Shown here: positions 12,991-64,000 of the stretch, in pieces
Numbering within the stretch: the stretch's first letter is position 1
Layout of the letters: each line of letters starts with the position of its first letter
Source: Cyanophora paradoxa CCMP329
Taxonomy: Eukaryota > Plantae > Glaucophyta
Assembly (NCBI GenBank): GCA_004431415.1
Contig: QPMI01000144.1
Location: 1 to 64,000, forward strand
Length of the DNA: 64,000 nt
Direction: 5' to 3'
Notes under the pieces: model-generated
Database searches by the model: none
Told to the model about the DNA's origin: nothing
The model's input: only the letters and a program-made list of their open reading frames with translations
Position numbers and translations under genes: made by a program

Positions 12991-13018
12991 CTTCTTTTAT
13001 CTATAAACATATATTAAA

Positions 13019-13950: not shown

Positions 13951-14338
13951 ACCGATTCAAATTCACTGTTTCGAAAACATCCAGAAGGGGACTCTTGGGA
14001 TCTTCTGTATACCATTTGCGAATTGTCTTATCCCATTTAGCACCATTCTTTTTCAAGAAACTACAAAGGGTTGATCTCCTTGTAATTCGCAATCCCATCT
14101 CTTGGAAGATCTCATAATGCTCTTGGAGTTTCTTGACAATCAAGAAGTAATGCCCATAGTAATTGTAATACTGCTGGTTAATCGGCATGTTTCCTTTACA
14201 GCATGATGGGAAATCGTTTGTCAATTTTTGGCGAAACGAGAGTATCTCATGAGATAGATGAGAGAATAACAGGTGTGTTTTCAGGGTTGGAGAAATCGGA
14301 GAAACATAGAGTATTGCGATTTCCGAGTTAGTTGACAC
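13934..14338 (-). CDS. Hypothetical protein with DUF5710-like motif
   Basis: C-terminal KKNGAKWDKTIRKWY. Confidence 0.5.
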   Translation of the reverse strand: MSTNSEIAILYVSPISPTLKTHLLFSHLSHEILSFRQKLTNDFPSCCKGNMPINQQYYNYYGHYFLIVKKLQEHYEIFQEMGLRITRRSTLCSFLKKNGAKWDKTIRKWYTEDPKSPLLDVFETVNLNRFNHYQ

Positions 14339-14388
14339 TGAGAAATTCAGAATTTCAGATGGTCTTACTGAAAATGGTCAGATAATCG

Positions 14389-14883
14389 GGTGTGACACCT
14401 ATTTAATTGACTGTGACGCCTGTGACAGGTGTGACACCTATTTTCAAACTTTTTAAAATTCTCACAAATTACAGACTTCTGAAAACACCTGTCACACCTG
14501 TCACACCCGTCACACCCAATTAACAAAAGACTCTATTTCTTACTGAGATATTCAAGAATTTATTGTTGTCTTACTGAAAACAGTCTATGTGACAGGTGTG
14601 ACACCTTCAAAATCCACCCAACAATAGTCGATTTCATGAATACCTTTCTGTCTTACTGAAAATGGTAAGGAGACCAGGTGTGACAGGTAGTTTAATTGAG
14701 TGTGACAGGTGTGACAGGTGTGACACCTATTTTCAAACTTTCTAAATTTTTCAAAAATGACAGACTTCTGAAAACACCTGTCACACCTGTCACACCTGTC
14801 ACAGACATTCTACCCCTCTTACTGACTTTCTCAAAAACAAATATATCTATTACTGAATATCATTTGAATACTACCTGTCACAC
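14389..14883. repeat. Two further copies of the iteron/AT-spacer cassette plus isolated iterons
   Basis: 14403-14523 and 14691-14803 repeat (GTGTGACAG)3-CCTATTTTCAAACTT...CTGAAAACACC-(TGTCACACC)3 seen at 5491-5634. Confidence 0.9.
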
Positions 14884-14916
14884 TTGAATTCAATTATTCT
14901 GTTTTATAGAACATAT

Positions 14917-15175
14917 GCAATCTAATCGATTGTTCAATTGGAGACCATGCAACTCTGTGACACTTTTTCGATCTAAAATATAAATCCGCAATCTCATCGA
15001 TTGTTTAATTGGACATAATGCAGTTCCGATATATTCCAATAGAAAATCCCGCAATCTAATCGATTGTTTAATGGGAGATAATGCAACTCTGTGACACTTT
15101 TTCGGTGCAAAAATGTACATCAGCAATCTCATCGATTGTTCAATTGGACACAATGCAACTCTGTGACACTTTTTG
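14917..15175. repeat. Four degenerate ~63-72-bp subterminal tandem repeats
   Basis: GCAATCT(A/C)ATCGATTGTT(C/T)AAT.GGA...ATGCAACTCTGTGACACTTTTT at 14917, 14988, 15051, 15123 (second copy diverges in its 3' half). Confidence 0.85.
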
Positions 15176-15494
15176 CGTTTTTCGATACAGAATGGGCGGT
15201 GGTCTACTTCAATACATGAGAGTTATATCGAGTTTATGCGAATTTATGCAATTTAATCGCAATTATATCGATCTTTAAGCAGTTTAATGTTAATCTATCG
15301 CAGATTTGTATGTAAACAACAAAGTACATAATCAATCGATATAAGATCAATTGAATCTATCGAAGTTTAATCGAAAATATGCATTTTGGTAAACGCGTTT
15401 TCATTTTTAATACAAAGTTTGCATTATTTTATACAAAGTTTGCATAAAAAGTTTAAGAAATTAATCGAAAAATATGTATTTTAGTATTAAATTA

Positions 15495-15589
15495 ACACAT
15501 ATTGAAAAACGAATTTAAATCCAGAGTGAATCGAGATCGCGAAGCGATCGAGATGAACGAGGGATTTAAATTCGTTTTTCAATATGTGT
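15495..15589. repeat. Terminal fold-back of element 1
   Basis: 28-bp perfect inverted repeat (15495-15522 / 15562-15589) enclosing GATCGC-GAA-GCGATC. Confidence 0.9.
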
Positions 15590-39400: not shown

Positions 39401-39683
39401 TGTTGTAAAGGGGAGGACCCCCCCCCAAACCAGACCGCCCCCAAAGTCTGGTTTTACCTTCAGGGATCCACCCCTTCTAGCGTCATCAATTAGCGATTTT
39501 TCTGAGATCAGTTAGGCGTGTTAATTAGGCGTGATGATGGACGAGCATGGATTTGAAGATTGGAAGGCGTGAGGGCGAGTGCATTTGGATCTGAGTAGAG
39601 AATATCGAGGGAGCTCTATCTAGGCGCTATCAGGGGCGACCTCCCAAGCGGTACGGGCCCCCAGAGCGGTCTGGTGCGGCCTC
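39401..39683 (+). repeat. Left TIR of element 2 (outer end inferred at TGTTGT, 39401)
   Basis: 39422-39683 is the reverse complement of 63739-64000. Confidence 0.92.
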
Positions 39684-46800: not shown

Positions 46801-47176
46801 TTGTACGTGACAGCGACGCGCAGCTTGATCTGCATGTACGCGCAAAGGGGATTCCGCAATCGTGGATCCAGGAGCACTGGCTACCAGACGAACCAGAGGC
46901 GAGGAAAGGGGCCCTCGACCGCAGGATCGCTCTGGATGCTTACAGGTGCATGCTCGAGGATCCCACGTACCAACCCAAATGCACAATCGAATCAAAGCTG
47001 GCCCGTGTTTATAAACCGAACGGGCGGCAACGGAGAGCGGAATCAGCTTTAGTTCCATGATCCAAATTCCGTTCGCTCGACAGCTGAACAAGTCGCAGTA
47101 TACAAAGCGCAAGATAATTTCGGACGAATACTATAGTAGCGTCCCCCATGAGTACCGCGCAGGCGAGCCGAATTAA
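43851..47176 (+). CDS. Protein-primed family B DNA polymerase with intact exonuclease motifs (frameshift near 47020)
   Basis: ADFETF, YNGSGFDY, YVEDDV, IYGGR, DVVSLYPTAM, KIYMNGLYGKY, YTDTDS, PKLY, AKGI; alternative frame ends KRKII..SVPHEY. Confidence 0.95.
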
Positions 47177-48334
47177 GCAAGCTTATTACGATCCGGAAAC
47201 TGGCTTTCAGTCTGCGGCGAGGATAGCTAAGCGGCTCAATTTACCGCTATCAAGAGTGCAGGACGTACTTTCAAAATTGACGACTGCGCAGCGTTTTGCG
47301 AAACCTGTAAAGGAAAAGCCATCGACCAGCATAATTTACGGGGAGCCCGAAAAGTACTACGAAGTCGATCTGATTGATGTGACCCGTACGCGAGAACTAA
47401 TCGAGGGATTACTTTTATTATGAACGGTATCGATGTGACGACGCGCAAAGCGTATAGCATCCCTATGAAGACGAAATCGGAAAGCACTCTGCTAGCCAGT
47501 TTGAAGAAATTGATTGATGCACTCCCCTCGAAGCCGGACGTCATTCAGACAGATCAGGAGTTCAAAGGAACCGCAGCAACAATGCTAGCGAGTATGGGCA
47601 TCAAGCATAATGCAGTGGAGGCGCATCGCCCGCAAGCAAACGGCAAAATAGAGAGATTTAATGGTACGCTTAAGCGCATCATTGCAAAGTACATGGATGC
47701 GTACGACACGGACAGATATATCGATAAGCTGCCTGCTTTCTTGCGCAATTATAATTCGTCAGAGCATAGGTCAATTGGTACGTCGCCGAACGCTGCAGCA
47801 GAAAATCCGAAGGAGACAATTGCACGCAACGACTACCAGAGAGAAGCGTACGAGCAACAGCACTATTTTGCCCAAGCGGAATTTAAGGTAGGCGATCGGG
47901 TGCGAGTGCAGCTAGAGCGGCAGCGTTTCGACAAGTCTTCAAAGCCGACGTATTCAAAAGAAATCTACACGATCACGGAGATAGGTGGCTTTGGGCCGCT
48001 GCTCAAATTTACGCTTTCGGGCTACGACAAAGCGGTGACCTACCAGCGACTATTGAAAGTAGCGGCAGATTCAGAGGAACGTCGTGCGGGCAATGCAGCA
48101 CAGCGGGCACAGCAGCGCAGGAAGAAAGAGATTAATCTAATGCAAGAGAATCTAGACAAGAGTGATATAGAGAGAGCGCGCAAACTCGAGCGTTTGCAGA
48201 AGCAATTGTTGACTGCAGGTAAAGAGAAGCTGAACCCAGGAGGGGCAACACAGAGATGGTATTCGTCGTTCCAGAATAAAACTGCAGCGTACTCAGCCCC
48301 TGGCAATACGCGAACTCTCCGCCCACGCGCGTGA
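47148..48334 (+). CDS. Retroviral-like (rve) integrase, 1-nt frameshift near 47380
   Basis: YYDPETG, VDLID / NRGITFIMNGIDV, QTDQEF, KIERFNGTLK, YNSSEHRSIGTSP, FKVGDRVRV. Confidence 0.92.
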
Positions 48335-48787: not shown

Positions 48788-49144
48788 ATGCCAGCAACGA
48801 TCCGATTCGGCAAGTATCGAGGGGAGACGCATCTGGAGGTTGTTTACAGGGATCCAAAATATGCAGAATGGTTAATTTCGTGGCCGCATTTGCGCCCATA
48901 CGATAAGCAAAAGCTTGAGCGTGCATTCGAAATGTGCCGCACAATAGAGGGCTCTGAGCTTAGGAAGATGATTGACTTCGCAAAGCAGCAGCGACGTCCT
49001 ACAGTCGAAGCCGATGGGCTGGGCGAACTGATTACAGTCGAATCCGCCGACCTCCAGAGCTCCCTTCATTTGAGAGCTTGTAGAATTGGGCTCAGAAACA
49101 TTGGGGGTAGCTGGCTTTACAGCTGCATCATCGAGAGCTTGTGA
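48788..49144 (+). CDS. Small protein with DUF3820/ExoX-C-like motif
   Basis: IRFGKYRGET..DPKYAEWL; 3' end overlaps the opposite ORF, so the true stop is uncertain. Confidence 0.65.
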   Translation: MPATIRFGKYRGETHLEVVYRDPKYAEWLISWPHLRPYDKQKLERAFEMCRTIEGSELRKMIDFAKQQRRPTVEADGLGELITVESADLQSSLHLRACRIGLRNIGGSWLYSCIIESL

Positions 49145-49663
49145 AGCCTTTTCTTTTTCGATTTTTAAATAGCGTAAATCTGGCACGTCCATAGGTCTGT
49201 GCTTAAACATCTCGCTTCGAAGCATCTCCCGAATTTTCGCTCTCTCTTGCTTTTCCTTAACGTATGATTCGACATTAGCCGACCGCGCTTCCAGATCACG
49301 CAATTTCGCTGCAAGCTCATCGAACTGGCTTTTGCTCAAAGCTGGCGCACGTATTTTCGGGCCAGAGTACCGCGGCTCGCTAGCCATCGCTTGGAGAATT
49401 CTTGCAGCATCATCGTCGATATCGGACTGCATTTCGCTCACGGTTTTAACTTGTCCATGGCGATCGTCGGTCGCACTGGCATTCGCTGCTGCCGAGGCGA
49501 TCGTTTTAGCTACGGGTGCATTTAGGCGGGGGTCACTAGCTAGCTCACCGCTAGGATCAGCAACAGCTGCGCCCTCAGTTGAGCCGCTTTCAATCAGTGG
49601 GGCGTTCGGCTCGGGGAGCACCCTTCGTTCCCGGTAGCCTTTTCTTGGAACACCGCGTGGCAT
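48872..49663 (-). CDS. Conserved hypothetical protein, homolog of 8945-9679 (3' end uncertain)
   Basis: KLRDLEARS..KERAKIREMLR; syntenic with the ATPase. Confidence 0.7.
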   Translation of the reverse strand: MPRGVPRKGYRERRVLPEPNAPLIESGSTEGAAVADPSGELASDPRLNAPVAKTIASAAANASATDDRHGQVKTVSEMQSDIDDDAARILQAMASEPRYSGPKIRAPALSKSQFDELAAKLRDLEARSANVESYVKEKQERAKIREMLRSEMFKHRPMDVPDLRYLKIEKEKASQALDDAAVKPATPNVSEPNSTSSQMKGALEVGGFDCNQFAQPIGFDCRTSLLLCEVNHLPKLRALYCAAHFECTLKLLLIVWAQMRPRN

Positions 49664-49672
49664 CTTTTTCTC

Positions 49673-50416
49673 TTATGGTAAGATTTTAAAACGCTTCTTT
49701 TTGGGATGAACAGGCGTTGAATTTTCTTTCTTAGGCTCTTCTTGTCTTAGCCATTTAGTAAAACGAAAGCTCTTATCTTCAACGGCTTTATCAACGTACC
49801 AGGCCGTATCATACTTAGTTCCATCCAGGACTAGGCACTGATAATCATGCGCCCAAGTCTCGAACAAGGCGATGAACTTATCTTTTGGGAGATGACTGAA
49901 CTCTCTATAGATCGCCTCGAGCTCGGTATGATTAGAATAACTAAAGAAAAAGCAGTAATCGCTGTTTGATCTTATAGATTGACTAAGAGCTGTTAGCTTT
50001 TGCGTCATAAGAATCGTACTTATATTAAAATGGCGGCCCTGCGTAAAAAGTCGATTTACAGCCTTGCTGTTTCGCAGATCAACAGTTTCAGAGGCGGCAA
50101 CTAGATCGTCCAATACAAGCAATATCTGCGGTGCTTTCTCTTTGTTTTCGATCAACTTTCGCTGTGAATCAATGATTTCTGCAACTATGGCGGGTTGAAA
50201 ATCGTCGTAAAGCTCTTTAGTTATTGCAGAGTATTCACCATTGAATTTGGTGGCAGTGAAAACGACGACTCGGTTGATCTTTGGATACAGCAGTCGAAGC
50301 AGATGCTTTGTGCAATAGAACGATTTGCCGCTATTGGACTTCGATATAAATAGGGCTTTGAAAGGGACCCTCATGTCTCCCGGCTGGAACTGTGCGAGCT
50401 CTTGAGACTGATCCAT
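49673..50416 (-). CDS. A32/FtsK-HerA-like packaging ATPase
   Basis: SKSNSGKS, LLVLDD, QGRHFNIS, IRSNSDY. Confidence 0.92.
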   Translation of the reverse strand: MDQSQELAQFQPGDMRVPFKALFISKSNSGKSFYCTKHLLRLLYPKINRVVVFTATKFNGEYSAITKELYDDFQPAIVAEIIDSQRKLIENKEKAPQILLVLDDLVAASETVDLRNSKAVNRLFTQGRHFNISTILMTQKLTALSQSIRSNSDYCFFFSYSNHTELEAIYREFSHLPKDKFIALFETWAHDYQCLVLDGTKYDTAWYVDKAVEDKSFRFTKWLRQEEPKKENSTPVHPKKKRFKILP

Positions 50417-50478: not shown

Positions 50479-51867
50479 CTAGAGGTTCACCTTGCGAAGG
50501 CCCGCAGCATCAACAATTAGGACAGTGTGCAGGAGAGCGCGAACCTGGACGTAAATCTTGTTGTTTGCATCGTAAGCGGCAGGATTCATGATATTCAGGA
50601 AGCAGCTGCTGCTGTTGGTGAGATCCACGAAACCAGTTTGAGCTGCATTTCGGATCGATTTATCCCCACTAATGCAAAATGGCAATCCACTCAGGACATA
50701 TCTGTTAAGAGGCGCGTCGAGATTTGAGCACTTGAACACATCAGCAATGAGCTCAGCACCTTGCAAGAGTGGCACAGGCTCGTTAGAATAAAGTCGCTGG
50801 CCATTCAATTCGCAGGAAATAGTTATGTCACGAGCATTGGCCTCAGTTTTAAGGACACTGTGTTTTCCATCAGTTTGGTTCATATTTGTCTGCTTGCGAA
50901 TGCTAACAAAAAGGCCATAGCAGAGCCCACTGATCTGCGACAGATTAATCCGTGTAGGTGCACCAGCCCCTGCATAGGTGATCGAGTCAGCATCAACCCA
51001 GCCAACCTCAGTGGCAGGAATGGCGATTCCAGACGATTTGACTTTTTCAATAACCTGTGCAAAAGTAGCCTCATCAACGTTGATGCAGTGAGCTATAATC
51101 TTTGGATTCGATAGCTCGGGATTGGCAGGAGTGACAGTGAGGACATTGGGGGTTATATTCTGGCCAATGTTTGCAGGGGATGCAGCGGCAGCTCCTACGC
51201 TCCCAAGTCCATCATCTTTAGAGGCATCACCGTTTGCGGCATATTCTGCTACAAACCTACCACCATAGCTGGTCTCAACGAAGCCCTGGGCACGGTCACG
51301 GAACCAAACCTCCACAGACACCTCGCCCGATAGCGCACCAATTGGAAGCACTGAGCCCTCCCAGGGACAGGGGATCTTTACACTGAAAATACCTCCAGCA
51401 CGATTGCTCCCCTGAGGTGGTGTTCCATGAAGCCAGCCACCGGATCGGTACTTCTTTTTAAGCTGAGCATCATCATTGAAAATCAGAGCGCTGTGAACAA
51501 GCCAGTCCTCGGGGACAATGTAGCTGTAGGAAGCATATTTGATTTCGATTCGCTTTACGAGAGCACCAACCGATCGCAAATAACCAGTGCGAACCAGGTC
51601 AGTGTCACCAGTAAATGCGGTCAGCTCTGGAAGGGTAAACTGGAGTTCGAGCCCCTGAAGGAAATTGTAGCGGGGCAGGAAATAAGTAACCCTCTTTCCG
51701 AAGCAGTCTCCATAGTCATTGCTTGGGTTGACAACAACACGCACAGGCTTTGTTTGGCTGGTTAGACCTAACATAAGCTCATTGTTCATGAAAAAGTCCT
51801 TAGCTTCCTGCGGAGTTGTCAGGAGCTCTTTGAGACCGAGTCGCTGCAAGTTTTGGGTAACATCCAT
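50479..51867 (-). CDS. Major capsid protein (predicted double jelly-roll)
   Basis: 462 aa, intact, colinear homolog of 10553-11926. Confidence 0.85.
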   Translation of the reverse strand: MDVTQNLQRLGLKELLTTPQEAKDFFMNNELMLGLTSQTKPVRVVVNPSNDYGDCFGKRVTYFLPRYNFLQGLELQFTLPELTAFTGDTDLVRTGYLRSVGALVKRIEIKYASYSYIVPEDWLVHSALIFNDDAQLKKKYRSGGWLHGTPPQGSNRAGGIFSVKIPCPWEGSVLPIGALSGEVSVEVWFRDRAQGFVETSYGGRFVAEYAANGDASKDDGLGSVGAAAASPANIGQNITPNVLTVTPANPELSNPKIIAHCINVDEATFAQVIEKVKSSGIAIPATEVGWVDADSITYAGAGAPTRINLSQISGLCYGLFVSIRKQTNMNQTDGKHSVLKTEANARDITISCELNGQRLYSNEPVPLLQGAELIADVFKCSNLDAPLNRYVLSGLPFCISGDKSIRNAAQTGFVDLTNSSSCFLNIMNPAAYDANNKIYVQVRALLHTVLIVDAAGLRKVNL

Positions 51868-51911: not shown

Positions 51912-52868
51912 TCAATTTGACGAATTGATCCAAGGATATGTCTTCGATCTTTTCTGGAGCTGAAGCTTGGCGAGCTCGTAGACAACATCACCATTGGGTT
52001 CATCTGGGCCATAACGAATTTCGAGTATAAATGAGACAGGACCTCCATTTAAATCAGCAATTCGCTGCATAAAATCGTAAATCTCAATAGTCACAGAGTA
52101 GAGGTCCAGCTTTGAATAAATATACTTGTACAAAGGATGTGCTTCAGTTGAATCATAGTATGCTATCTCGCCTGGACGAAGGACGCTTGGAATGCTCAGC
52201 TTTGAGAAGAAGCCAGGTATTGACGTGTTCGGCATACTGACAAGGTCACCAATTTCAGGAATGCGTAGGAGCACATGATCATCGGGAGTGACATCAGGCT
52301 CATAAGCGCCTGCTATATATTCAGTATTTATAGATAATGTCTTTGACCGAATCGGTAGAATTGATCGCAGCCCTAGAAGCTTTGCAGTTCGCTGAGCCCT
52401 TGCAACGGCCTGGTAGTTTCTGACTTCCCGCCCACCCTGGTTCGTTGGCAACATCAGAGCAATAAAGAACTCGAAGTTAGCTGTGAACCCTATTAATTTG
52501 ATCGCTGAATTATACGTGCACGTGATACCTGTTCCCGTCAACCTTTCGTTTATCTCTGTCACAAGCGAGGTGACGTCGTAATTTCCAGGTGGAATTGCAA
52601 TGTTATTCCACGCTCCAAAGCCGGCCTGAGGTGGGTCGGGTCCTTCATTAGTAGGATCATATTTGCACCAATATATGTAGGTGTCAAAGACCAAATCCTC
52701 TGCTGGATCGAGTACATCAATTGTGCTCATTGTGTTGGGGATCTCAGCTGATACCAAGCGCACGGCTTTCACATCCTGATAAACTTTAGGCAGTCTTACT
52801 TTAAATTTCGAGGTGGATGTCAGCTCCTCCGCTTGGTGACTTGCAATGCAGACGTAGTCCGTAGGCAT
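51912..52868 (-). CDS. Minor capsid (penton-like) protein 1
   Basis: VKAVRLVSAEIPNT, IPPGNYDVTSLVTEIN, DLNGGPVSFILEI. Confidence 0.85.
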   Translation of the reverse strand: MPTDYVCIASHQAEELTSTSKFKVRLPKVYQDVKAVRLVSAEIPNTMSTIDVLDPAEDLVFDTYIYWCKYDPTNEGPDPPQAGFGAWNNIAIPPGNYDVTSLVTEINERLTGTGITCTYNSAIKLIGFTANFEFFIALMLPTNQGGREVRNYQAVARAQRTAKLLGLRSILPIRSKTLSINTEYIAGAYEPDVTPDDHVLLRIPEIGDLVSMPNTSIPGFFSKLSIPSVLRPGEIAYYDSTEAHPLYKYIYSKLDLYSVTIEIYDFMQRIADLNGGPVSFILEIRYGPDEPNGDVVYELAKLQLQKRSKTYPWINSSN

Positions 52869-52895
52869 CTTTTTTATATCAGTTAGAGAATAAAA

Positions 52896-53785
52896 ATGCG
52901 GCTTACCTTTGACAGCAGAGACAGAAGGCCAATCGATTCCGAGGCAAACTTTGTGCTCGAAATCAATGAACCTATAATCAATCCAGTTGCTGTTCGACTT
53001 ACCCAGTGTGAGTTCGCAAACAGCCTTTACACCAGCATTAAAGATGAGTATCTTTCGATCACCTTTCCCTACATTGGGACAGAAAATCTGGCGGTTTTTG
53101 AGCCTGGCATAATTACTACTGCAAATCTGGGCGAAACAGATATTTATAACTTTGGCCTATCGTTTAATATTAGGCTAGAAGGGATCTCAATCGCATATTT
53201 CAAATTGTTTCGAGACCCAGAGACGTTGAAAATGTCTGCCTATTGCAGCCGTTCCTGCACACTGACCTGCCAGTTCAAAGCTCTATCGAATCTGCTTGGG
53301 CTGAACCGAAATGAGTCTCTCCAGCTGTCTCCTATCGTGCTTGAAGGGGGCAAAGACCAGCAACTGCAGCTGAGCGGTATCTCGAGGTTGCTGGCATTCC
53401 AGTTACACCTGCTCACCCTGAGTACGGCATTGATTTCACCGGAAGAATGCGGAGTGAGCCACTTGGTTATGCTGTCGAATTTCCAAAGATAATCGACATG
53501 AACAGCGACCAGTACCTCTTCCTTGTCTGCGAAGAGCTACGGCCATTTGCTTCAAAGCTTCGCCGCGGGGCCAAAACAATGTGCAATTATGGGCTCGCTC
53601 GAATTCAAATGAGCCAGGACGTTGGCAAGTTCGTTTATATAAATCAGGAAAATGACGGCGAGTGGATCCCCATCGAAGAGCGCCTAGTGCTGACCTCTTT
53701 GCGACTGCGCATTGTCGACAGAGATGGTGATGACGTCTCTCTGAATGGCCTGCCATGGTCTGGTGAACTGCAATTTTTAGTTTAG
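52896..53785 (+). CDS. Minor capsid (penton-like) protein 2, frameshifted near 53350
   Basis: FDSRDR, YLFLVCEEL, LRLRIVDRDGDDVSLNGLPWSGELQF; homolog of 13019-13950. Confidence 0.82.
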
Positions 53786-55261
53786 GTAACGTCCCCGGAA
53801 ATCAAGCCGGAACGCATTCACATTTATAAATTCGTTTGTTATAATTTGCACATAGTTATAAACCTGTGGGGTGATCAAATGCGAGTCACTATGCATTAGA
53901 TCAAAGCCTGTCATAGATGGGTTTGCAGCAAGCACATTTGCTAGGACCGTATTCTCAAATAGTGACCCGTCTCGTAAATATCCTAAGTTGGTCAGAATGC
54001 TGAAATTAAATAGGACTCCGGCAGCAAAGGCTGGCCCATACATAATGATTTGATGTAGCTCAAAAGGCTTTGGAAATTCGACTCTGATCCAGGGATTAGG
54101 TAGAGTGCCACCTTGGAACCCTGTTGAGTTGGGTCGCACATGAGAAGGTGGGTGCAATTCCTCAAAGTCGTTGCTTATGATGTTTGCATCTGGAATTATA
54201 AACCAGTTTACATCAAATGGCGGCTCAACTGTTAAAGTAGACGATATGATTAGTCTCTCATCGTTCAGTAGGTCGTAGTTCGCCAATAGAAAGCTGCAGA
54301 GTGCATTTATTTTAGCATTTATTTCGATTTGTTTCAGCCATAAATCTGTTGTGGAAATCAAATAAGAAATATTCGATGGGGAGGCATCATCAAGCTTGCT
54401 CATGACTGCAGCTGGCAGCGGAACACTTAAACGCCAGTATCTAGTTAGATTCCTATCTGCATCAACTGGAAGCAGTTCCTGCATTTGAAAGTGCGATTCC
54501 AGCTCGCTACCTGACATTAGCATAGAAATGATTGGGCTGCCTGAGAGGGATAGGATCCAGCCCAGAGCGCCCCAGCCTGACGTCTCCGAATTCGAAAAGC
54601 CTGCAGTCAATTGCTCACTGGCTTGGACCTCACCACAGCTAATGCTCACAAGAACAATTGGATCTTCTGCATCGTAAATTTTACTGGCGTGGCTGAGTGC
54701 AGCAACTGAGGGATTATTCAAACAGGCTATCGCCCCGTCAACAAGGTTTTTGTCCCCTAGAACCTTCGGTGGAAAGAATGTAGGCGCTGCAGAAGATGCT
54801 CTCACTGCATCACGAATCAGCGTGCTTGAATATGGCCCATCCTTCGTAAAAACTACTGGCTGCATCCGAACTGTATCAAACGCTGTAATTAATACGTCTT
54901 TTGTCGATTCTGCAATTGTGTAGTCCAGGGCAACGTCTGTAAGCACCGACTCCAGAGGATTTGCATCATAGCGGCTTCCTGAGAGCAAGCTTGTCAGTGA
55001 TCTTGGATTTGCAAATATTGTTGGCAGGTTCGTTTGATATAGACTCAAGATATCACCTGCAGAATATCGGTAAGCAAGAACAGAGCCTGGAGTTGATGGG
55101 ATCGCCAATCCGGCCGCTATTATTGCCCCTGTTGAGGTGCCTGCAAAGAAATCAAACAGCTGTGGTATTGCTTTCCCAGTAATCGCCTCAATCCGCTGTA
55201 GAATTCGGGCTATGACTATTCCACGAGCACCTCCACCTGATAGTGAGAGAATGACCTTCAT
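53777..55261 (-). CDS. Patatin-like phospholipase with C-terminal discoidin/F5-8C-like domain
   Basis: GGGARG, GTSTG, SSAAPTFF, DGA; tail PNPWIRVEFPKPFELHQIIMYG..YNYVQI..RLDFRG. Confidence 0.9.
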   Translation of the reverse strand: MKVILSLSGGGARGIVIARILQRIEAITGKAIPQLFDFFAGTSTGAIIAAGLAIPSTPGSVLAYRYSAGDILSLYQTNLPTIFANPRSLTSLLSGSRYDANPLESVLTDVALDYTIAESTKDVLITAFDTVRMQPVVFTKDGPYSSTLIRDAVRASSAAPTFFPPKVLGDKNLVDGAIACLNNPSVAALSHASKIYDAEDPIVLVSISCGEVQASEQLTAGFSNSETSGWGALGWILSLSGSPIISMLMSGSELESHFQMQELLPVDADRNLTRYWRLSVPLPAAVMSKLDDASPSNISYLISTTDLWLKQIEINAKINALCSFLLANYDLLNDERLIISSTLTVEPPFDVNWFIIPDANIISNDFEELHPPSHVRPNSTGFQGGTLPNPWIRVEFPKPFELHQIIMYGPAFAAGVLFNFSILTNLGYLRDGSLFENTVLANVLAANPSMTGFDLMHSDSHLITPQVYNYVQIITNEFINVNAFRLDFRGRYLN

Positions 55262-55285
55262 TTTTAAAAGGGGGCTTATATAAAA

Positions 55286-55376
55286 ATGTCCTACATCTTG
55301 AAGAAGCCAGTGCCACTTCGTAAAGCTCCAGATTTTGTGGATGATCGGCATATAAATATTCGCGTATTTGGGAGTA
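55286..55376 (+). pseudogene. Orphaned 5' end of the long fibre gene
   Basis: MSYILKKPVPLRKAPDFVDDRHINIRVFGS matches MSYLLRKPVPLRRPPESPEEDRLINIRVFGS at 56004. Confidence 0.85.
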
Positions 55377-56003: not shown

Positions 56004-59000
56004 ATGTCTTATCTCCTGAGAAAGCCTGTGCCTCTGCGACGGCCACCAGAATCGCCTGAAGAGGATAGGCTCATTAATATTCGCGTTTTCGGAAGCATTT
56101 TGGCTGACTACAATGCTGACAAAGATATACACCAGACCGAGTTTAATCGCCCAGCTGCGTTAATTCTGCGCAACTCACATGTTGGCGCCCCGGACATTGC
56201 ACAGAGATTTTGTCTAGGTCCAGCTGAGAACTATGTTGCTGAAATAATTGGATCCAGGGCGTTGCCGCGGCACCTGCGAATTGCCTCCTCAGGCACTGTT
56301 TCCAAGTATGATTCTGGTAGATTAATCTTTAGGCTCCAAAATGATAGAGGGGTCCACACATCAGCTCTACGCCTAATTGATGAATCCAATGCTGTCACAA
56401 ACAAGACTGCGGCTCACATTACAGGGCGAATTCTCCTTGGCGAAGATGCAGGAATATCAGTGCTAGCATCACAAATCCAGCCGTTTCCCTGGGATTTACT
56501 TTTTACAGCTGCACGAGAAGCAAATATTTTATACGGTTTTGATGTAAATCAAATCGATACCGAGCCAGCCACCAGGTTAGATATTCCTGGATGCACCTTT
56601 GGCTCGATCCTGATGGAAGCTGATAGGCACCTGCTCCCGGCGTTGCATGACAGCTACGATCTTGGGCTCCGCACCAGGCAGTGGCGAAATATTCACGGCA
56701 CGTCGATTTACCAAGATGGAAAAAGGTCATCACTGAACCGGAGATAATAAACATTTTCAACTACTACTTCGGACCTATTGTCCCTATACCACCTATACCA
56801 CCTCTTCCAGGGCTACCGAAGCCAAACCCTGAAGGGCCAGGTCGTGAGAGAGTTGCAGATGAAACAATTCCATTCGGGCAAAATATTATTTCGTGGGAGG
56901 CTGTCAGGAATCGCCCCGTGATAGAACGCTATAAGCATCCGCATGAAGAATACCTGCCGCCTGATATTGAAGTTTTCCCGCTCGAAATGTACACAGAGCC
57001 TGAAGAGCAGTTACTTCCTGATGGCTTAGATGTTCAAGAACTCCAGTACGAGCAACCTGTGATTCCACATGAGCAGCTGCTTCCAGACGGCTTTGAACCT
57101 ATTCTCTTCCCTTGGAGTTCACCGTAGATTGGGAATCAATAACCAATAAACCTGGGAGTTTTCCACCAGAGGAACACAGGCATGATTGGGATGAAATCGA
57201 TAATAAACCGTTGCGGTTTCCCCCAGAGGATCACAGACATGATTGGGCTGAGATCGATAATAAGCCTTTACGGTTCCCCCCAGAGGATCATAGACACGAC
57301 TGGGGTGACCTTGATAATGTTCCGCTTGAATTTCCACCGGAAGATCACAGACACATTTGGAGCGAAATAGATGAGCAGCCCGAGTTCGCAAAGATTGAGC
57401 TTCCTGTCACACTAGCTGTCTCTCTCTACAAATCAATTAACACCCCTGAAAGGTTATATTTGAATGACCACTATGTCCACAGGCAGGGAATTCGTGCTAA
57501 CACTGACATGTCAGGCTCTTTGTTTGTAAGGATTCCCCGTGGAATGGAGATAGTTGCTGCTGGCGGGAATATTGGTTTGCAGGACACGTTCCCAAGTATT
57601 TATGTCACAAACTACTACGCCTCTGACATCGAAATGACATCTGTTCTACCTTTTTTGCCTTCACTGCCGTTGGATCCTCTCTCCCATGCTGATTTTCATT
57701 CTGCAATCCAGATTAATGTAACAGATGTTAGCGATTTAGATTCATCGAGACCGAAATTAGTTTTTAGCCGTGAACGCCTTTTACCCAATGCTCTGATAGG
57801 AAATCGAGATGATTATAAGAAATGCGAAATAGCATGGATAAAAACGAACTATAACGGTGGAGTTGGGGAGGGCATTTTAGAAATTAATCAGAGGGCAGCA
57901 GCAAAAAACATTCACAACGAGACTATATCCAGAGTGGTCACAGAGGATTACCTTCAAGCCCAAAATTATGTAGATGAAACAGAGCTCGCTTTAGTTATTG
58001 CAGGTCTAGCTGTGACAGGGAATTACCTGCCCTTGACAGGAGGAACTATTGACGGAACAGTGACTGCTGACAACTTTTTTGTTCACACTGAAAGTGATCA
58101 GACCTTCCCTGTGGTTCACCCAGGAGCTGAGTACGAGATTCCTATTGATCCTGCTATTATGCCCATAAAAATCGATCTCCCTTCCGATTATGTTGGACGG
58201 GGTGAACTGAAAATAATCTCTTTCACAGGAGATTATAATGATCTTTTAAACAAGCCTACTGCTGAGAACCTTCACCCTGTTGCCTATTCAGGAAATTTCC
58301 TCCATTTAAATAATAGGGCACACACCCACACAAAGGCTGAGATCACAGATTTTGCACACACTCACACGAAGTCCCAAATAACAGATTTTGCACACACCCA
58401 TACCCGAGCAGATATAACTAATTTCGCTCACACCCATGTTAAATCAGAGATAACTGATCTTGGGAATGTTGCTTATGTTGGTCATACCCATACCAAGGCA
58501 GAGATTACAGACCTGGGAAATGTATCGTACGTTGGTCATACCCATGATTGGAATACTGATATCTATAACAAACCGGCGTTGTTCTCAGGCAACTACAACG
58601 ATCTGACCAATAGACCCACTCTTGATCCCTTCACAGCCACCACTATCAGAGCCAATAATACAATGTATGTAGGATCAGGTCAGATTGTAGAACCAGCAGG
58701 GCCTATGTTTGAAGAAACATGGTTCTTCCACAATTCGCAGAATTACTTTGATAAAACCTTACTTGTTCGTGGAAATGCCTATGCAAGAAATTTCTATGCT
58801 ATGAACCCCTCAAATAATGCGACCATCAGTCGATGTATTACAGAGGCAGATCTTTCCAGTCAACTCAATGCATATTTTAATGGGAAAATTCAAGCAGGGA
58901 AGTATGTTTACACTACTCCCGTTTTAGATTACAATAATCTCTATGTGTTCAATCTAACTATCTATTTTACCAATGCCTTTGCTTCTCCTCCTGTTGTGAC

Positions 59001-59178
59001 AGCAACAGTAAGGCATGAAGGACAAGATCCAAATTATCAATTAACTCCCGTCGTTTTTACTGTGAACCTGTTGAATGTTTATAGTAACTATTTTACTTGT
59101 GAACTTTTCACTGATCCATATGCAATGATTAATTCATCCAAAACTGTTACAATTCATTACATTGCTGTCGCAATTTAA
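56004..59178 (+). CDS. Long phage-like fibre protein (~1050 aa if the frameshifts near 56725 and 57110 are repaired)
   Basis: YDLGLRTRQWRNIH, (FPPEDHRHDW.EIDNKP)n, YLPLTGGTIDG, (HTHTKAEITDF)n, SGNYNDLTNRP, C-terminal FTNAFASPPVVTAT..IHYIAV. Confidence 0.8.
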
Positions 59179-59197: not shown

Positions 59198-60258
59198 ATG
59201 ACATCTGTATTAGAAATCCCGAATTATGAATTAGCAGCCAAATCACTGCATAGCACCTCTCATGAAGTAGTTGATTCTACACCTGGGAATATCTGCACCG
59301 AAACAGCAAGCAATACCTCCTTAACCGAAACCAATATTTTGAGAGTCAAAGAAATACGCTGTGACCGAAATGGAGGCAAGATACGAACTACAGGTATTAT
59401 TATTTCGAATAAAAATCAGGTTCAAGCAGGTCAAGTAGTCCCTGATTCAGCAGTTTATGATAACGTGGGTGGATTCACCACGGCAAAGATCGTAACTTTC
59501 GATAACACAAGCAATAACTCCGCTCTTGTGGTTAAGAGTGGTGGAGCCTATATTGGTGACGGAGCGATTGTAGTGGGGACTGTCACAGCAAATCAATTAA
59601 ACGTGAGTGGTACATGCATTTTCAGTTCTTTGATGACTTTTAACTATGGCCTTTTAGGTAACATAATTTATGGGACTCTTCAGGCATTTCTGAGAGTTCA
59701 AGCACCCGAAATTGGTAGTGGAACAGATTCCAACATGAGCTACAAACGAAATGGTAATGCAATTGTCACTCTTGAAAAAACGACGGTAGCAGAGATAGAG
59801 ATAAACTCATTCACACTTTCCCCAACTTGCTATTTGAAAAGGACTTATTGCCCAAGATTTTGTGTCACAAAACTATTACCTAATCAGGCAGCATCATCCT
59901 CATCATGGTCATCTGGCGTCCGTATTACCTTCACAGTTCCTAATTTCGCTACTTATTATGTCAACAATGAAGGCAACTGGAATGATTCGTATATATTTAC
60001 TGCACCTGTTGCAGGTGTTTACCGGGTTTTTTTCACAGCTCTCAGAATAGATACTCAGACTTCTTATGTGACTATCTTAAAGCTTTCAATAAATGGAATT
60101 GCATCCGATTACGAATTTCAATGTTCATTAACGGGACAAATGGCTATCACATACGAAACTTTACTTACTCTTAACATGGGGACAATGTTGGAGTATTAAA
60201 CTCAACAGGTGTTACCATCACTATTAGCACACGCTGTTACTTGGGTGCTATCTCGTAA
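59198..60258 (+). CDS. Fibre/spike paralog 1 with C1q-like head (frameshift near 60180)
   Basis: Shared N-terminal KEIRCDRNGGKIRTT domain; FTAPVAGVYRV, LNMGDNV. Confidence 0.8.
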
Positions 60259-60291
60259 GTGCTATATAATATTGTCTGTGTAATATAAAGA

Positions 60292-61317
60292 ATGGCTACT
60301 CAAATAGCAGTCCCTGTTTTCTGTTACGCTGCACCGAAAATTCATCAACTCAACCACACTGTAACAGATGCAACTCCGGGTTTTATTTGCACAGAAACAA
60401 CAGGAGCAGATTCATTTTCGCAGAACTCTTTGATTCGATGCAAGGAAATCCGGTGTGATCGCAATGGGGGCAAAGTGAGAACCACAGGTCTCATCGTTTC
60501 GAACAAGAACCAAGTTCAATCAGGACAGATCGTTTCTGATTCCGCAATCTATGATGATGTGGGAGGGTTCACCACACCCAAGATTGTTACGTTTGATAAC
60601 ACAAGTAATAATTCTGCTCTTGTCGTGAAAAGTGGAGGTGCTTACATCGGAGATGGTGCGAGGATTGATGGAAACCTTACAGCTGAGCAACTCACAGTAA
60701 CAGGAACGACTACTTTTAATAACTTAGTAACAGCTAATGGTGGTGTGTATGTCCCTGGTGCTCAGCAGTCTATTGTGACAGCAACTACCAAAATTGTTAC
60801 ACCCGAAGTAGATACAGGTTCGAGCTCAAATCTTCTCTTGAAACGCAATAGTAATCTCATGGCGACACTGGAAGCCAATAGTCTCACTCTAAATACAGGT
60901 TGTTACTTCAAGTACGATTTTCAACCTCGATTCTGCGCACAACTTGGTTACACACATGTTGCTTCAAGTGCTGCTCCTCTGATCAACTGGACAACAGTTT
61001 TTATAGACAACAGAGGTGCCTTCAATACAGGCAATGGAAGATATACAGCTCCTGTTGCAGGACATTACAGATTAACTGTAAATTCTTCCTCAACATCTTC
61101 AACAGCTGTAAGTCTGACTTTGCAGGTAAACGATACTAACCCTGGTGGTCTGACCATCTTCACATCTGGAACTTCAACTACAATTGCAGCGAAACCTCTA
61201 TATATCAACGTTATACTCAATCTTGCTGCCGGAGAATATGTCACAATTGTCACAGGAACAGCTGGTAGTTATGCAAGTCGAACAACATTTACAGCTGAAC
61301 TTCTAAGTATCACATAA
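60292..61317 (+). CDS. Fibre/spike paralog 2 with C1q-like head
   Basis: KEIRCDRNGGKVRTT; FNTGNGRYTAPVAGHYRL, LNLAAGEYVTI. Confidence 0.85.
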   Translation: MATQIAVPVFCYAAPKIHQLNHTVTDATPGFICTETTGADSFSQNSLIRCKEIRCDRNGGKVRTTGLIVSNKNQVQSGQIVSDSAIYDDVGGFTTPKIVTFDNTSNNSALVVKSGGAYIGDGARIDGNLTAEQLTVTGTTTFNNLVTANGGVYVPGAQQSIVTATTKIVTPEVDTGSSSNLLLKRNSNLMATLEANSLTLNTGCYFKYDFQPRFCAQLGYTHVASSAAPLINWTTVFIDNRGAFNTGNGRYTAPVAGHYRLTVNSSSTSSTAVSLTLQVNDTNPGGLTIFTSGTSTTIAAKPLYINVILNLAAGEYVTIVTGTAGSYASRTTFTAELLSIT

Positions 61318-61339
61318 ATTTTCTCTCTATAATGTAGGA

Positions 61340-61606
61340 ATGTCGAATATCTACCAAGTGGTTCTCTCAGATACTGAGAAGTTGGGAATGGAATATTGTG
61401 CTGCTTCTGTTCAGGATTGGATTGATAATGTCGTTCATAACAGGGCAAGAATTGCAATTGATGAGATTGTTCAGAAAGAAATTCAATCTTGCATCTCATC
61501 AGGAGTTCAAATACCAACCTCAAAGGAAGCCATTGTGTCACAGGCATTCCAAAGGGGAACTGTAAAGAAAGGCATCGAGTATAATAATGTCACAGAAGAG
61601 CAGTGA
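61340..61606 (+). CDS. Small phage-like protein next to the C1q fibre genes
   Basis: LSDTEKLGMEYCAASVQDWIDNVVHNRARIAIDEIV; resembles small proteins I recall beside fibre genes of aquatic tailed phages (not searched). Confidence 0.65.
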   Translation: MSNIYQVVLSDTEKLGMEYCAASVQDWIDNVVHNRARIAIDEIVQKEIQSCISSGVQIPTSKEAIVSQAFQRGTVKKGIEYNNVTEEQ

Positions 61607-61654
61607 AGCTATAGCTTGTCTGCAGCCTATTTTTTTCTCTCGCATTTCTATCAA

Positions 61655-62502
61655 ATGACCGAGTACAATCGGGTTCAGCTACCTATCTACTCACTGGGCT
61701 CCCCAGCCATCCATATGAGGCAGCATGAAGTTAGCGATGCTATTGCGGATTAGAGTCCACTGAGCGTCCAAACTCAACTAATGCATTTGATCAACGATCT
61801 GTGATTCGGTGTAAAGAATTGCGCGCAGATAAAAACTCTGGGGTTGTAAAAACAACGCGATTATTAGTCACTAATGCAAATTTTTCCCAGCCCATAACAG
61901 GGGGAGTTGATTCGTACAGTGTTGACCTCCGAAGCATAAACTATGATCAAAACACTGCTGCCCTCACTGTGCGCTCCGGGGGAGCAGCTATTACTGGAGC
62001 TTGCCGTGTTAGTGGAGGACTATCATCATCGATTGCCATCAATGATGTTCCAGACTTTTCATTAGAGAATGTCGAAAATCGTAAACGAGTTCGAATGTAC
62101 TTACCTTGCTGTGACCTCCCCTATGCACAAGCTCTAGTAGAAGTTGAGATAACCATAGCAAATTCAAGTACACCAAATGGTCTGGATGGTGAGAGGTTGC
62201 TTTCAAACAGAGAAATACCGAAGGCACTTCAATCACTCTGTCAGGATCAAAATGATCAGATAGGGCATGTGTATACGTTCTTTGTGCAAGGTCTTGGGCA
62301 TGCTGGCCGGGGATACGTAGTTCGTAATATCAATACAAGGCATCTTTTCGATTTATATGCTACCGCTATAGGCAGATATTCTATCCTAATAATCGGATAT
62401 CGCTCCGATGTAGCTGCATCAGCGGCCACTAGAGGACTGAACCCTGATCCAGCACTCAATAATATGTATGAGGAGAACAATCCAGAAAATCCTATAGCTT
62501 GA
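61655..62502 (+). CDS. Fibre/spike paralog 3 (frameshift near 61747), non-C1q head
   Basis: HEVSDA..GLESTE..RCKELRADKNSGVVKTT. Confidence 0.78.
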
Positions 62503-62530
62503 GTGAAAGTTTTATCTTCTGTTTTCTAAA

Positions 62531-63364
62531 ATGGAAGCTGTTGAAAGAATTGTTGTTCCCTCTTTGACACTAGCAGCCCCAGCAAATCACGTCCTCCAGC
62601 ATGCTGTCTCAGACGACGTGCCTGGTCTGCAATCAACTGAGCAGCAGCCAACTCTAAATACCTTCCGGGAGAATCACATATTACGTTTAGGCGAGGTTCG
62701 ATGCGACAAAAATAATGGGACAATAAAAACAACAAGTCTCCTTGTAACCAATGCAAACTTTAATTCAAATTATGGGGATCCTGATAGCTATGACGATGCT
62801 AATAAGGTCAATACTTTTACCTTTGAATCAAGAACAGGTGCCGTCACCTGCAGATTTGGAGGTGCTTATATTGGCGATGGTCTGAGAGTAGGCGGCGCTG
62901 CTTGTGCTCCTATATTTGTTAATGATCAACCTAACCCTGAAAACACAAATGAAAGAATTCGAACCTATGTGCCTTCTATGAATTCGCCTTACATTATTAA
63001 ACTATTCACCCTAAACATAAATGAGCAAACATCGATTGTAGATAACGTTCAGCCACTCGGAAATCATTTCAAGAGTGTTGTTGATATTCCCCCGGATGTC
63101 TACTTCCTTTGTAGAAGGAATGATGCTCTCCGGCCAAACATAGCTGTTTTGATCAATCCTATCGATAATTTTGGTGTCGCTTTCCATTCGACTCCAGTTG
63201 GGGTTGAAGATTACCAGTTTATTGTGAGGGCCACGCTAATGGGTGCCTACAAAATTATTCTATTTGCTGAAAGAACAGATGTGATTGCAAGCGGGGTCAA
63301 GTATGGTGAGACCTTCAATTCGAATCGTTACTTTCCAATTGGAGGGGCTGATCCCAACCCATAG
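62531..63364 (+). CDS. Fibre/spike paralog 4, head related to paralog 3
   Basis: HAVSDDVPGLQSTE..GEVRCDKNNGTIKTT; RIRTYVPS..PY and GAYKIILFAERTDV match paralog 3. Confidence 0.8.
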   Translation: MEAVERIVVPSLTLAAPANHVLQHAVSDDVPGLQSTEQQPTLNTFRENHILRLGEVRCDKNNGTIKTTSLLVTNANFNSNYGDPDSYDDANKVNTFTFESRTGAVTCRFGGAYIGDGLRVGGAACAPIFVNDQPNPENTNERIRTYVPSMNSPYIIKLFTLNINEQTSIVDNVQPLGNHFKSVVDIPPDVYFLCRRNDALRPNIAVLINPIDNFGVAFHSTPVGVEDYQFIVRATLMGAYKIILFAERTDVIASGVKYGETFNSNRYFPIGGADPNP

Positions 63365-63397: not shown

Positions 63398-63802
63398 ATG
63401 GATCTGCTCCGTAAATGCATGGACATGTTCCATCTCAACGTCACCAGCAAATTGAAATGCAGTTGCTGCGAGACAACTATCAACCTCGAAATATCTGACA
63501 CTGAGGGCTCACGCACCCCTGATACTCAGCTATCGCCTAATAACACACCCGGACTTCTAGGTCCAATTCTCCTTTTACGCGATCTGATTCACCTATACCA
63601 TGGCTTGATTCTGAAAGCCGAAGATCGTCTTGGCCACCCCAAATATCCCGAAGCCCCTGAAAAGAAAGAAGTCCTTGCTATCAAGTTTCAGAAAGGAGAA
63701 GACTCCAGTTGCCGAAAAGCAACCAGATCAAGTGGAATGAGGCCGCACCAGACCGCTCTGGGGGCCCGTACCGCTTGGGAGGTCGCCCCTGATAGCGCCT
63801 AG
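63398..63802 (+). CDS. Small conserved CCET protein, homolog of 8684-8917 (3' end uncertain)
   Basis: MDLLRKCMDMFHLNVTSKLKCSCCETTINLEISDTE. Confidence 0.7.
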   Translation: MDLLRKCMDMFHLNVTSKLKCSCCETTINLEISDTEGSRTPDTQLSPNNTPGLLGPILLLRDLIHLYHGLILKAEDRLGHPKYPEAPEKKEVLAIKFQKGEDSSCRKATRSSGMRPHQTALGARTAWEVAPDSA

Positions 63803-64000
63803 ATAGAGCTCCCTCGATATTCTCTACTCAGATCCAAATGCACTCGCCCTCACGCCTTCCAATCTTCAAATCCATGCTCGTCCATCATCACGCCTAATTA
63901 ACACGCCTAACTGATCTCAGAAAAATCGCTAATTGATGACGCTAGAAGGGGTGGATCCCTGAAGGTAAAACCAGACTTTGGGGGCGGTCTGGTTTGGGGG
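63739..64000 (-). repeat. Right TIR of element 2 (cut by the window edge)
   Basis: Reverse complement of 39422-39683. Confidence 0.95.

Follow-up and report, generated by a model that had tools for sequence, protein, structure and literature searches.

Four tandem genes of an integrated Polinton-like virus (PLV), g1 to g4, join a conserved N-terminal domain to exchangeable heads and likely encode short trimeric attachment fibers of the virion, a reading to which we give a probability of roughly 0.75. The element is about 25 kb long and, judged by its gene content, is a PLV integrated in the genome of a single-celled eukaryote: a protein-primed DNA polymerase B, an rve integrase, an A32 ATPase, and terminal inverted repeats (TIRs), features expected of Polintons and PLVs, are present. 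Within the window, the whole 64-kb stretch of DNA that was analyzed, its features are as follows.

39422–39683: TIR, matched part of the left arm (262 nt, 100% complementary to 63739–64000)
43851–47060, plus strand: protein-primed DNA polymerase B (PF03175, E 2e-50)
47420–48334, plus strand: rve integrase (PF13683, E 1e-8), its start probably within the 47148 ORF
49673–50416, minus strand: A32-like packaging ATPase (PF04665, E 2e-9)
50479–51867, minus strand: probable major capsid protein, adjoining the ATPase, with a paralogue in element 1
51912–53785: head-to-head pair of probable minor capsid (penton-like) genes, with homologous pairs in element 1
53777–55351, minus strand: patatin-like phospholipase with a C-terminal extension, a probable entry lipase (PF01734, E 8e-26)
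56004–59178, plus strand: g0, long fiber gene of ~1,060 aa, with H-x-H phage-tail repeats, an H-lectin-like tip, and two frameshifts
59198–60258, plus strand: g1, with N-domain (59198–59575), short stalk, and C1q head; frameshift near 60177
60292–61317, plus strand: g2, with N-domain (60292–60669), short stalk, and C1q head (residues ~210–341; PF00386, 26.2 bits)
61340–61606, plus strand: 88-aa phage-type companion of C1q fibers (38–52% identical to phage genes)
61655–62502, plus strand: g3, with the shared N-domain and a g4-type head; frameshift near 61746
62531–63364, plus strand: g4, with N-domain (62531–62893) and a head (residues ~153–248) of predicted H-type-lectin/gp53-like fold
63739–64000: TIR, right arm, cut by the window end

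The start positions given for g1 to g4 in the initial annotation are real. The probable major capsid protein is named by position and paralogy; it has no Pfam or PHROG match, and there are no related loci among viral contigs. The probable minor capsid proteins match no family, and the plus-strand gene of the pair is split over two ORFs. No Pfam match was found for the C-terminal extension of the lipase. Gene g0 lies immediately upstream of the array and contains PTR (PF12789, E 3e-7) and H_lectin (E 0.024) domains in Pfam; its PHROG matches are to tail fibers (best E 7e-12), and a profile of the shared N-domain run over six frames of the window does not find the domain in it. The capsid genes and the array are separated by ~5.4 kb, with the lipase, HNH, and g0 between them. 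This context, a TIR-bounded element with polymerase, integrase, ATPase, lipase, and a phage-type g0, is consistent with the array encoding fibers.

Sequence comparison identifies g1 to g4 as four paralogues with a common, previously undescribed N-terminal domain of ~125 aa. The motif first noticed, H.V.D..G..TE...E.R.D.N.G...TT...N with a later GGA.I, is found in all four genes, and local alignment scores for the domain between C1q-type genes and g3/g4 (153 to 214 for the four pairs) compare with shuffle maxima of 52 to 58 (500 shuffles). In six frames of the window the domain profile matches exactly g1 to g4 (g3 in two pieces); it matches nothing in element 1, in keeping with the earlier remark that the visible part of element 1 has no such array. 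Near-identity of g1 and g2 over ~75 aa had also been claimed; we measured 64 of 75 residues (residues 48 to 122), a conserved core that is 85% identical. Across these 75 codons pS is 0.81 (saturated) and pN is 0.08, and the domain is evidently under strong purifying selection. Only 30 of the 75 third positions are identical, so the g1/g2 similarity does not come from recent duplication or gene conversion, both of which we rejected. The initial annotation expected searches of protist EVEs and metagenomes to show many head types on one anchor; several head types were indeed found, but the domain is rare rather than widespread, with seven matches among 1.84 billion representatives, and there are no related loci of the domain or of g1 to g4 in viral contigs or in metagenome contigs. 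PDB sequence searches with N-domain alignments gave no matches in one case and a single match at E 2 (T4 short tail fiber) in another, the best ESM Atlas score is 0.85 (such matches being leads only), and the pLDDT of the domain is <50 in both monomer models. The domain shows no similarity to the minor capsid proteins (hhalign probabilities of 0.3 and 0.2 against two alignments, with shallow profiles that may miss a remote link). It likely anchors each fiber to the particle, either at the capsid or at the long fiber g0.

Frameshifts interrupt g1 (near 60177), g3 (near 61746), and g0 (near 56719 and 57108) in the window sequence, those in g1 and g3 being unstated in the initial annotation, and element 1 is also broken up. 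These breaks speak for a dead endogenous element in which a tandem duplication is decaying and the heads have diverged under relaxed selection. However, we regard this explanation as largely refuted and very improbable. Short-read contigs have one extra base at all four breaks: at g1 it is carried by all of the covering depth in all four runs, in each of two analyses; at g3 by 43–60% of the depth in all four runs; and at the g0 breaks it is seen in two and four of the four runs. The frameshifts are probably assembly errors. Moreover, the two TIR arms match at 100% identity, pN is much lower than pS, and unrelated head classes cannot come from drift.

The g1 and g2 heads were initially described as C1q-like, and for g2 a C1q/TNF fold is confirmed by Pfam (above the PF00386 cut-off of 23.7 bits), by Foldseek (E 9e-8), and by structure comparison, in which the model aligns with Caprin-2 C1q (Z 18.5, rmsd 1.6 over 125 residues), the tip of the cyanophage A-1 short tail fiber (Z 13.4), and PRD1 spike P5 (1yq8, 1yq5; Z 12.0). 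The g1 head reaches only E 0.2 with Pfam C1q but E 6e-10 with a C1q profile built excluding window sequences, and 34 of 128 positions are identical between the two heads. A search with g2 alone yielded no homologue, either in the 7,991 candidates that were scored or in GenBank phages. Since the C1q domains at the tips of g1 and g2 are homologous, the element has two head classes, not four. The C1q/TNF heads are predicted to bind surface glycans, which is their likely role.

That the last two genes share a different head is borne out: g3 and g4 are 34% identical over 267 aa, their heads are related (z 15), and the similarity of the C1q heads to the g3/g4 heads is not above shuffles. This head had been called unrecognized, and it has no Pfam match, but it does have a weak best likeness, at Z ~6, to the H-type-lectin/gp53 fiber-tip fold. 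The g4 head model aligns with HPA (Z 6.0, rmsd 3.0, 86 aligned), the R2 pyocin tip (6.0), AP22 gp53 (5.9), and Pam1 (5.6), such that H-lectins or phage/pyocin fiber tips make up four of its top six rows, although an unrelated herpesvirus protein also scores 5.9 and a Z of 6.0 is within the range reached by unrelated models. With g4, Foldseek finds nothing in the PDB at E ≤0.001, the BFVD matches are mostly phage tail or fiber proteins (best E 6.5e-7), and the ESM Atlas matches, which are leads only, are to phage clusters without names (0.92, low recognition). The g3/g4 type is 61–62% identical over nearly its full length to the metagenomic proteins P0001 and P0002.

By sequence, head swapping is evident among relatives, mostly outside this element. 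Eight full-length Cyanophora paradoxa proteins have N-domains that are 83–98% identical and C-terminal parts of three unrelated types; they are only 31–42% identical to g1 to g4 in the N-domain and may or may not lie in Polinton-like elements. The Cyanophora homologues include tig00000443_g787, tig00021036_g17384, and tig00021111_g18396. The C-terminal part is C1q in P0007, P0014, P0029, and, weakly, P0030; of phrog_34132 type (E 6e-44) in P0006, P0011, and P0012; and of a further unrelated type in P0022; no comparison between classes exceeds z 3. By motif, the second type may resemble the Peptidase_G2 intramolecular chaperone; PF11962 against P0010 gives E 0.12, below the cut-off, and BLAST did not match this type to any true G2 domain. 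Fifteen of the 23 Cyanophora sequences were left out as fragments (P0016, P0019, and P0021 by length only), and P0026 and P0027 were excluded because, judged by eye, their match came from the C1q head. The N-domain tree (17 rows, none dropped) has only three starred branches, and we relied on a single group in it, the 99/99 Cyanophora clade with its three head types.

Sister copies of the element were seen through contigs of public runs of the host. Summed contig depth, which does not equal copy number, falls right behind the GGA motif of both g1 and g2 in four of four runs (in run X2, from 7091 to 810 and from 6688 to 600), with the caveat that the g1 and g2 anchors may partly recruit each other's contigs. 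At 59614, four to six contigs per run depart from the sequence; several of the sister-copy joints rest on sides of <30 letters. Contig cover of g3 and g4 is flat. Heads invariant among relatives would have contradicted the initial proposal; the g1/g2 heads vary among sister copies with shared anchors, whereas the g3/g4 heads do not, and the latter look fixed rather than swapped on this sequence evidence. A constant front with a variable tip is nonetheless supported, both by the Cyanophora head types and by the g1/g2 sister copies.

This variation also bears on how the four proteins might assemble. Rather than four independent homotrimers, the genes could encode hetero-oligomeric fibers (g1 with g2, g3 with g4, or a mixed base via the shared domain), as they are tandem and co-oriented in two length-matched pairs, g1 and g2 have a similar core, and there is a precedent in virophage DSLV2, whose tail proteins were co-purified in a 1:1:1 heterotrimer (PMC12724248). 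We consider this unlikely: with stalks of different length in the two pairs, and no relationship between C1q and g3/g4 heads, the subunits of a four-way heterotrimer could not be kept in register. The DSLV2 positions are conserved, whereas the g1/g2 heads vary among sister copies.

Between g2 and g3 lies an 88-aa ORF that the initial annotation missed. It has 299 matching stretches, in hundreds of aquatic phage contigs, and a C1q gene sits directly upstream of the small gene in 37 of 49 distinct viral loci (80, minus 31 merged as duplicates of the small protein); of the others, 8 have a C1q gene elsewhere, 2 have none, and 2 are cut. Cyanophage S-SRM01 has the same order, C1q–C1q–small gene. 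In NCBIfam the 88-aa protein matches only the chaperone Lep, below threshold (E 0.004; 17 bits, cut-off 60), a result that we did not use. The protein is likely a tip chaperone or accessory subunit of C1q fibers, and the pair of tip and helper gene was likely taken from aquatic bacteriophages. It is improbable that the array encodes nonstructural or capsid-decoration proteins instead, such as lectin-like decoys or binders of a giant virus factory or surface; the front domain lacks a known homologue or fold, and PLVs can act as virophages (10.1101/2025.10.09.676808), but both head folds are typical of fiber tips, the companion gene belongs to phage tail-fiber clusters, and the array follows a long tail fiber and a lipase.

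Our preferred reading is of short attachment fibers. The front domain would fix each fiber to the capsid or to g0, and recombination would replace the head at a break point just behind the GGA-x-I-G-x-G motif. Genes g1 and g2 would be variable slots, whose heads would contact surface glycans, and g3 and g4 conserved slots with the predicted H-type-lectin/gp53-like tip. The 88-aa gene would have come from aquatic phages along with a C1q head, which it would help to fold or cap, and the many endogenous copies would between them keep a stock of tips for one interchangeable anchor. A more speculative extension, which we hold to be doubtful, is that the host genome serves as a population-level receptor library, in which co-reactivated copies mix tips on one capsid via the common docking domain and tips are renewed by capture of phage C1q heads with their helper; the tips could bind bacterial-type glycans (for riding on bacteria, or for recognizing cyanobacterium-derived structures of a glaucophyte-like host) or different giant viruses.

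For host choice and entry by PLVs, the element offers small, separable parts for testing: a ~125-aa domain that stays constant, heads of two classes within one genome and of more in relatives, and a phage-derived helper. If our reading is true, these eukaryotic viruses adjust their attachment in the manner of tailed phages: they exchange the tips that follow a fixed junction, and they use parts of phage origin for this. As an uncatalogued family, the anchor domain would be a marker for cassettes of this kind, and a testable role can now be assigned to the 88-aa gene in the phage contigs that carry it.

Earlier publications describe modular PLV fibers, virophages with tandem tail paralogues, and pelagiphages with variable C1q tips; in the literature searched, mostly open papers, we did not find the anchor domain, C1q tips in a PLV, or the captured phage pair. 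The closest system is DSLV2, whose three tandem tail proteins are related to cyanophage tail genes. Like our array, it consists of short paralogous tail genes in tandem, whose products combine a conserved base with a binding region that varies, in a small capsid-encoding protist virus, but its proteins have a T4 gp37-like collar (PF07484), are encoded next to the mCP gene, and keep one fold in a heterotrimer (PMC12724248). Here, g1 to g4 have no PF07484 match at E 0.05, the last array gene does not adjoin a minor capsid gene, and unrelated head folds sit on one anchor. PLV fibers have been found in particles, as reported for Gezel-14T Ltf (10.1101/2022.07.28.501842), and phage-like modular fibers are described as common in PLVs (PMC12220804). 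Two kinds of protein in the latter source resemble g0 and the lipase of our element: one from a Cyanophora PLV with a PTR-PTR-H_lectin architecture, and fusions of patatin with discoidin in PLVs of glaucophytes. Its fibers are long and multidomain, however; no short-fiber array on a shared anchor was met in the parts covered, and its main text and two supplements contain no mention of C1q.

Among tailed phages, C1q genes of pelagiphages combine conserved N-termini with heads that under-recruit (PMC3909814), and C1q receptor-binding proteins of pelagiphages and cyanophages likewise vary at the tip among close relatives behind a conserved N-terminus (PMC3909814, PMC7468147). In the S-SRM01 and DC33 records, C1q genes stand in tandem with this small companion gene behind them. 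Unlike our element, these are tailed phages of bacteria, and their N-terminal domains do not match the anchor (no matches in 84 loci). PRD1 and adenovirus presumably belong to the same capsid lineage as the element. The PRD1 spike P5 and adenovirus fiber are trimeric spikes with a C-terminal knob, an architecture like that proposed here, and the P5 knob matches the g2 head, but the P5 N-terminus is highly similar to penton P31 (PMC5850374), whereas our N-domain occurs four times and shows no such similarity to the minor capsid proteins. Finally, the MAT fibers of Bdellovibrio also combine one conserved end with diversified tips, including TNF/C1q-like folds (PMC10769870), but are a cell-surface family of a bacterium, and the likeness implies no homology.

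The four fibre-like paralogs g1 to g4, preceded by a long fibre gene (g0) that lacks their shared N-terminal domain, are well supported as a real, modular tip-swapping cassette. The genes in this region are:

56004-59178 (+), g0, with two H-x-H repeat blocks of 57-nt and 36-nt units
59198 (+), start of g1
60292 (+), start of g2
61340-61606 (+), 88-aa gene between g2 and g3
61655 (+), start of g3
62531 (+), start of g4; the array ends at 63364

The ~125 N-terminal residues common to all four (the N-domain) give local scores of 153 to 214 against maxima of 52 to 58 in shuffles, and a profile search of the window matched exactly these four genes, bearing out the common N-terminal domain proposed in the initial annotation. 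The same annotation described g1 and g2 as near-identical over ~75 aa and then divergent in C1q-like heads, and this also holds: 64/75 core residues are identical, as are 33/82 stalk residues and 34/128 head residues. The core has a pS of 0.81 and a pN of 0.08, so the likeness is maintained by protein-level selection rather than by recent copying. The g3 and g4 heads share 23/98 residues, and are not related to the C1q heads above the level of shuffles. The N-domain has no match in PDB, Pfam, or PHROG and no clear Atlas match, shows no resemblance to either minor capsid protein of the element, and has pLDDT <50 in both structure models.

The g2 head is a C1q/TNF domain, scoring 26.2 bits against Pfam C1q (cut-off, 23.7) and matching C1q/TNF structures with a Foldseek E of 9e-8 and a Z of 18.5 (rmsd 1.6 over 125 residues); its structural matches include a cyanophage short-tail-fibre tip (Z 13.4) and the PRD1 spike P5 (Z 12.0). 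The g1 head matches a C1q profile made without window sequences (E 6e-10). For g4, the model has a pLDDT of 42 overall, with a usable head (block means of 52 to 79 over residues 151-250) that best matches Helix pomatia agglutinin (Z 6.0), R2 pyocin fibre tips (6.0 and 5.9), AP22 gp53 (5.9), and the Pam1 tailspike tip (5.6); an unrelated herpesvirus protein equals gp53 at 5.9, and the BFVD matches are mostly phage tail proteins. These matches form a coherent class but score low, and an H-type-lectin/gp53-like fold is thus a prediction only.

Relatives of the N-domain are few. It has seven matches among 1.84 billion representatives, together with two full-length g4 relatives; a further search gave nine matches (seven Cyanophora and two apparently by head only), and cluster look-ups gave 23 Cyanophora sequences. 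All named homologues are from Cyanophora paradoxa. In eight full-length proteins the N-domains are 83-98% identical, and the C1q heads of four of these (P0007, P0014, P0029, and P0030) are just 25-38% identical; P0006, P0011, and P0012 carry a phrog_34132-type C-terminal domain, and P0022 one of a further, unrelated type. By sequence comparison, one front domain thus appears with four C-terminal classes (C1q, phrog_34132-type, P0022 type, and g3/g4 type), and in all eight proteins the switch point lies directly behind the GGA-x-I-G-x-G (GGA) motif. Several head types do occur on one anchor, as the initial annotation expected; the domain is rare rather than widespread.

In 20 DNA-type sequencing runs from one organism, 67-73% of the region's sampled words are present, and contigs aligned to the region occupy all identity bands, marking the element as a multi-copy family. 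Behind the GGA motifs of g1 and g2, summed contig depth (80% likeness) drops ~9- to 11-fold and recovers at the next gene, from 7091 to 810 and from 6688 to 600, respectively, in run X2, with the same pattern in 4/4 runs. Four to six contigs per run depart from the reference at 59614, and several contig joints bypass all or part of a head, the intervening sequence being unread. Contig cover stays nearly level across g3 and g4, whose heads are conserved in two metagenomic relatives of g4 (P0001 and P0002). Summed depth does not measure copy number, and the g1 and g2 anchors may share contigs; the depth pattern is accordingly support rather than proof, and suggests two variable slots (g1 and g2) and two fixed slots (g3 and g4). 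A contig in some runs (59490-60598) fuses the g1 front domain to the matching g2 region, as expected for a one-gene copy at the slot or a g1/g2 recombinant. In g0, contigs vary in repeat number, and one joint skips the tip (58919 to 59146, with 29 letters at its side), so that this tip may be variable too.

Most likely, each of the four genes would encode one short trimeric fibre whose constant N-domain docks onto the particle, with recombination among co-resident copies swapping everything behind the GGA motif. The C1q and lectin-like tips would bind surface glycans, and the lipase of the element would help entry. A less likely rival is that the proteins are non-entry binders. Decay is another rival, as the reading frames of g1, g3, and g0 are broken in the window. 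The short-read contigs carry an extra base at every break. This is true of all covering depth for g1 (4/4 runs, both contig surveys), of 43-60% of contig depth for g3 (4/4 runs), and of 2/4 and 4/4 runs for the two g0 breaks. Errors of assembly are the probable source of the frameshifts, which at the least are missing from many sister copies. One contig in most runs, with 192 bases of the g1 front domain (59256-59449) replaced by 40 other letters, represents a sister copy in which g1 is damaged.

The 88-aa protein, whose gene the initial annotation missed, is 38-52% identical to proteins of cyanophage S-SRM01 and Limnohabitans phage DC33, whose genes follow C1q fibre genes; in S-SRM01 two tandem C1q genes precede it, as in the g1-g2-88-aa order. 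The S-SRM01 locus (L002:962-5303) holds its own array of short fibre paralogs that begin alike but differ at the tip (C1q in two of them), a phage parallel to the cassette. In viral contigs 299 stretches match the 88-aa protein, and the best 80 loci reduce to 49 distinct, with C1q directly upstream in 37, elsewhere in the locus in 8, none in 2, and the locus incomplete in 2. Neither the N-domain nor the capsid, ATPase, polymerase, or integrase of the element matched in the 84 loci examined. This linkage makes it likely that tip and companion were acquired from aquatic phages and joined to the element's own anchor, a direction read from abundance and not from a tree. Phage fibre-assembly genes provide analogues for a chaperone or tip-accessory role, which the 88-aa protein may have.

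The ~25-kb element is a Polinton-like virus (PLV) encoding pPolB, an rve integrase, an A32 ATPase, a patatin lipase, and an HNH/AP2 protein, together with probable major and minor capsid genes, whose names rest on their position and on their paralogs in a second element (element 1). The g1-g4 array occupies its right end. GC-rich host DNA containing a gene with many short introns flanks the ~25-kb element. Features of the elements and their surroundings are:

1-1280 (-), GC-rich ORF on the left side of element 1, by eye resembling a non-LTR retroelement endonuclease
1500-15500, element 1, entirely within the window, with GC-rich flanks on both sides
5490-5650, related copy of the element 1 right-end repeats
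8945-9679 (-) and 48872-49663 (-), coiled-coil-like conserved gene after the ATPase in each element
14360-15190, right-end region of element 1 with nested direct and inverted repeats (TGTCACACC units and 59-62 nt units)
25500-33200 (+), ABC-transporter-like host gene broken up by a very large number of short introns, several of which appear to begin with GC (by eye)
39422-39683 and 63739-64000, 262-nt perfect inverted repeat at the ends of the ~25-kb element
53777-55351 (-), patatin lipase with a ~170-aa C-terminal extension lacking a Pfam match

Element 1 encodes pPolB, a D5-like primase-helicase, an ATPase, and the same capsid module, with several genes frameshifted; no fibre array or terminal repeat was found in it, and the scanned ORFs include no integrase. 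Element 1 may be a truncated form or one reliant on sister elements for fibres, and its nested repeats are a possible origin or terminal structure. The lipase extension may be a discoidin-like domain. This guess fits the patatin-discoidin fusions in glaucophyte PLVs reported in PMC12220804, where a PTR-PTR-H_lectin fibre (PTR, phage-tail repeat) likewise resembles g0. Together with the C. paradoxa origin of all named N-domain homologues, these likenesses suggest a glaucophyte-like host.

Published work covers the logic of modular fibres, in PLVs (PMC12220804; 10.1101/2022.07.28.501842; 10.1101/2025.10.09.676808), virophages with tandem tail paralogs related to cyanophage genes (PMC12724248), pelagiphages with variable C1q tips (PMC3909814, PMC7468147), the PRD1 spike (PMC5850374), and mosaic MAT fibres (PMC10769870). 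A term search of a 2026 PLV framework preprint (10.64898/2026.06.19.733378) returned no mention of fibres, and neither C1q tips in PLVs nor the g1-g4 anchor turned up in the literature searched. Hetero-oligomers, as in the virophage DSLV2, are a rival to separate trimeric fibres; the cassette works like the published systems, but by their defining tests it falls outside DSLV2-type tails and P5-type spikes. Fibre modularity itself is known, and what appears new, from the literature searched, is the presence of C1q tips in a PLV and the anchor domain that carries them.
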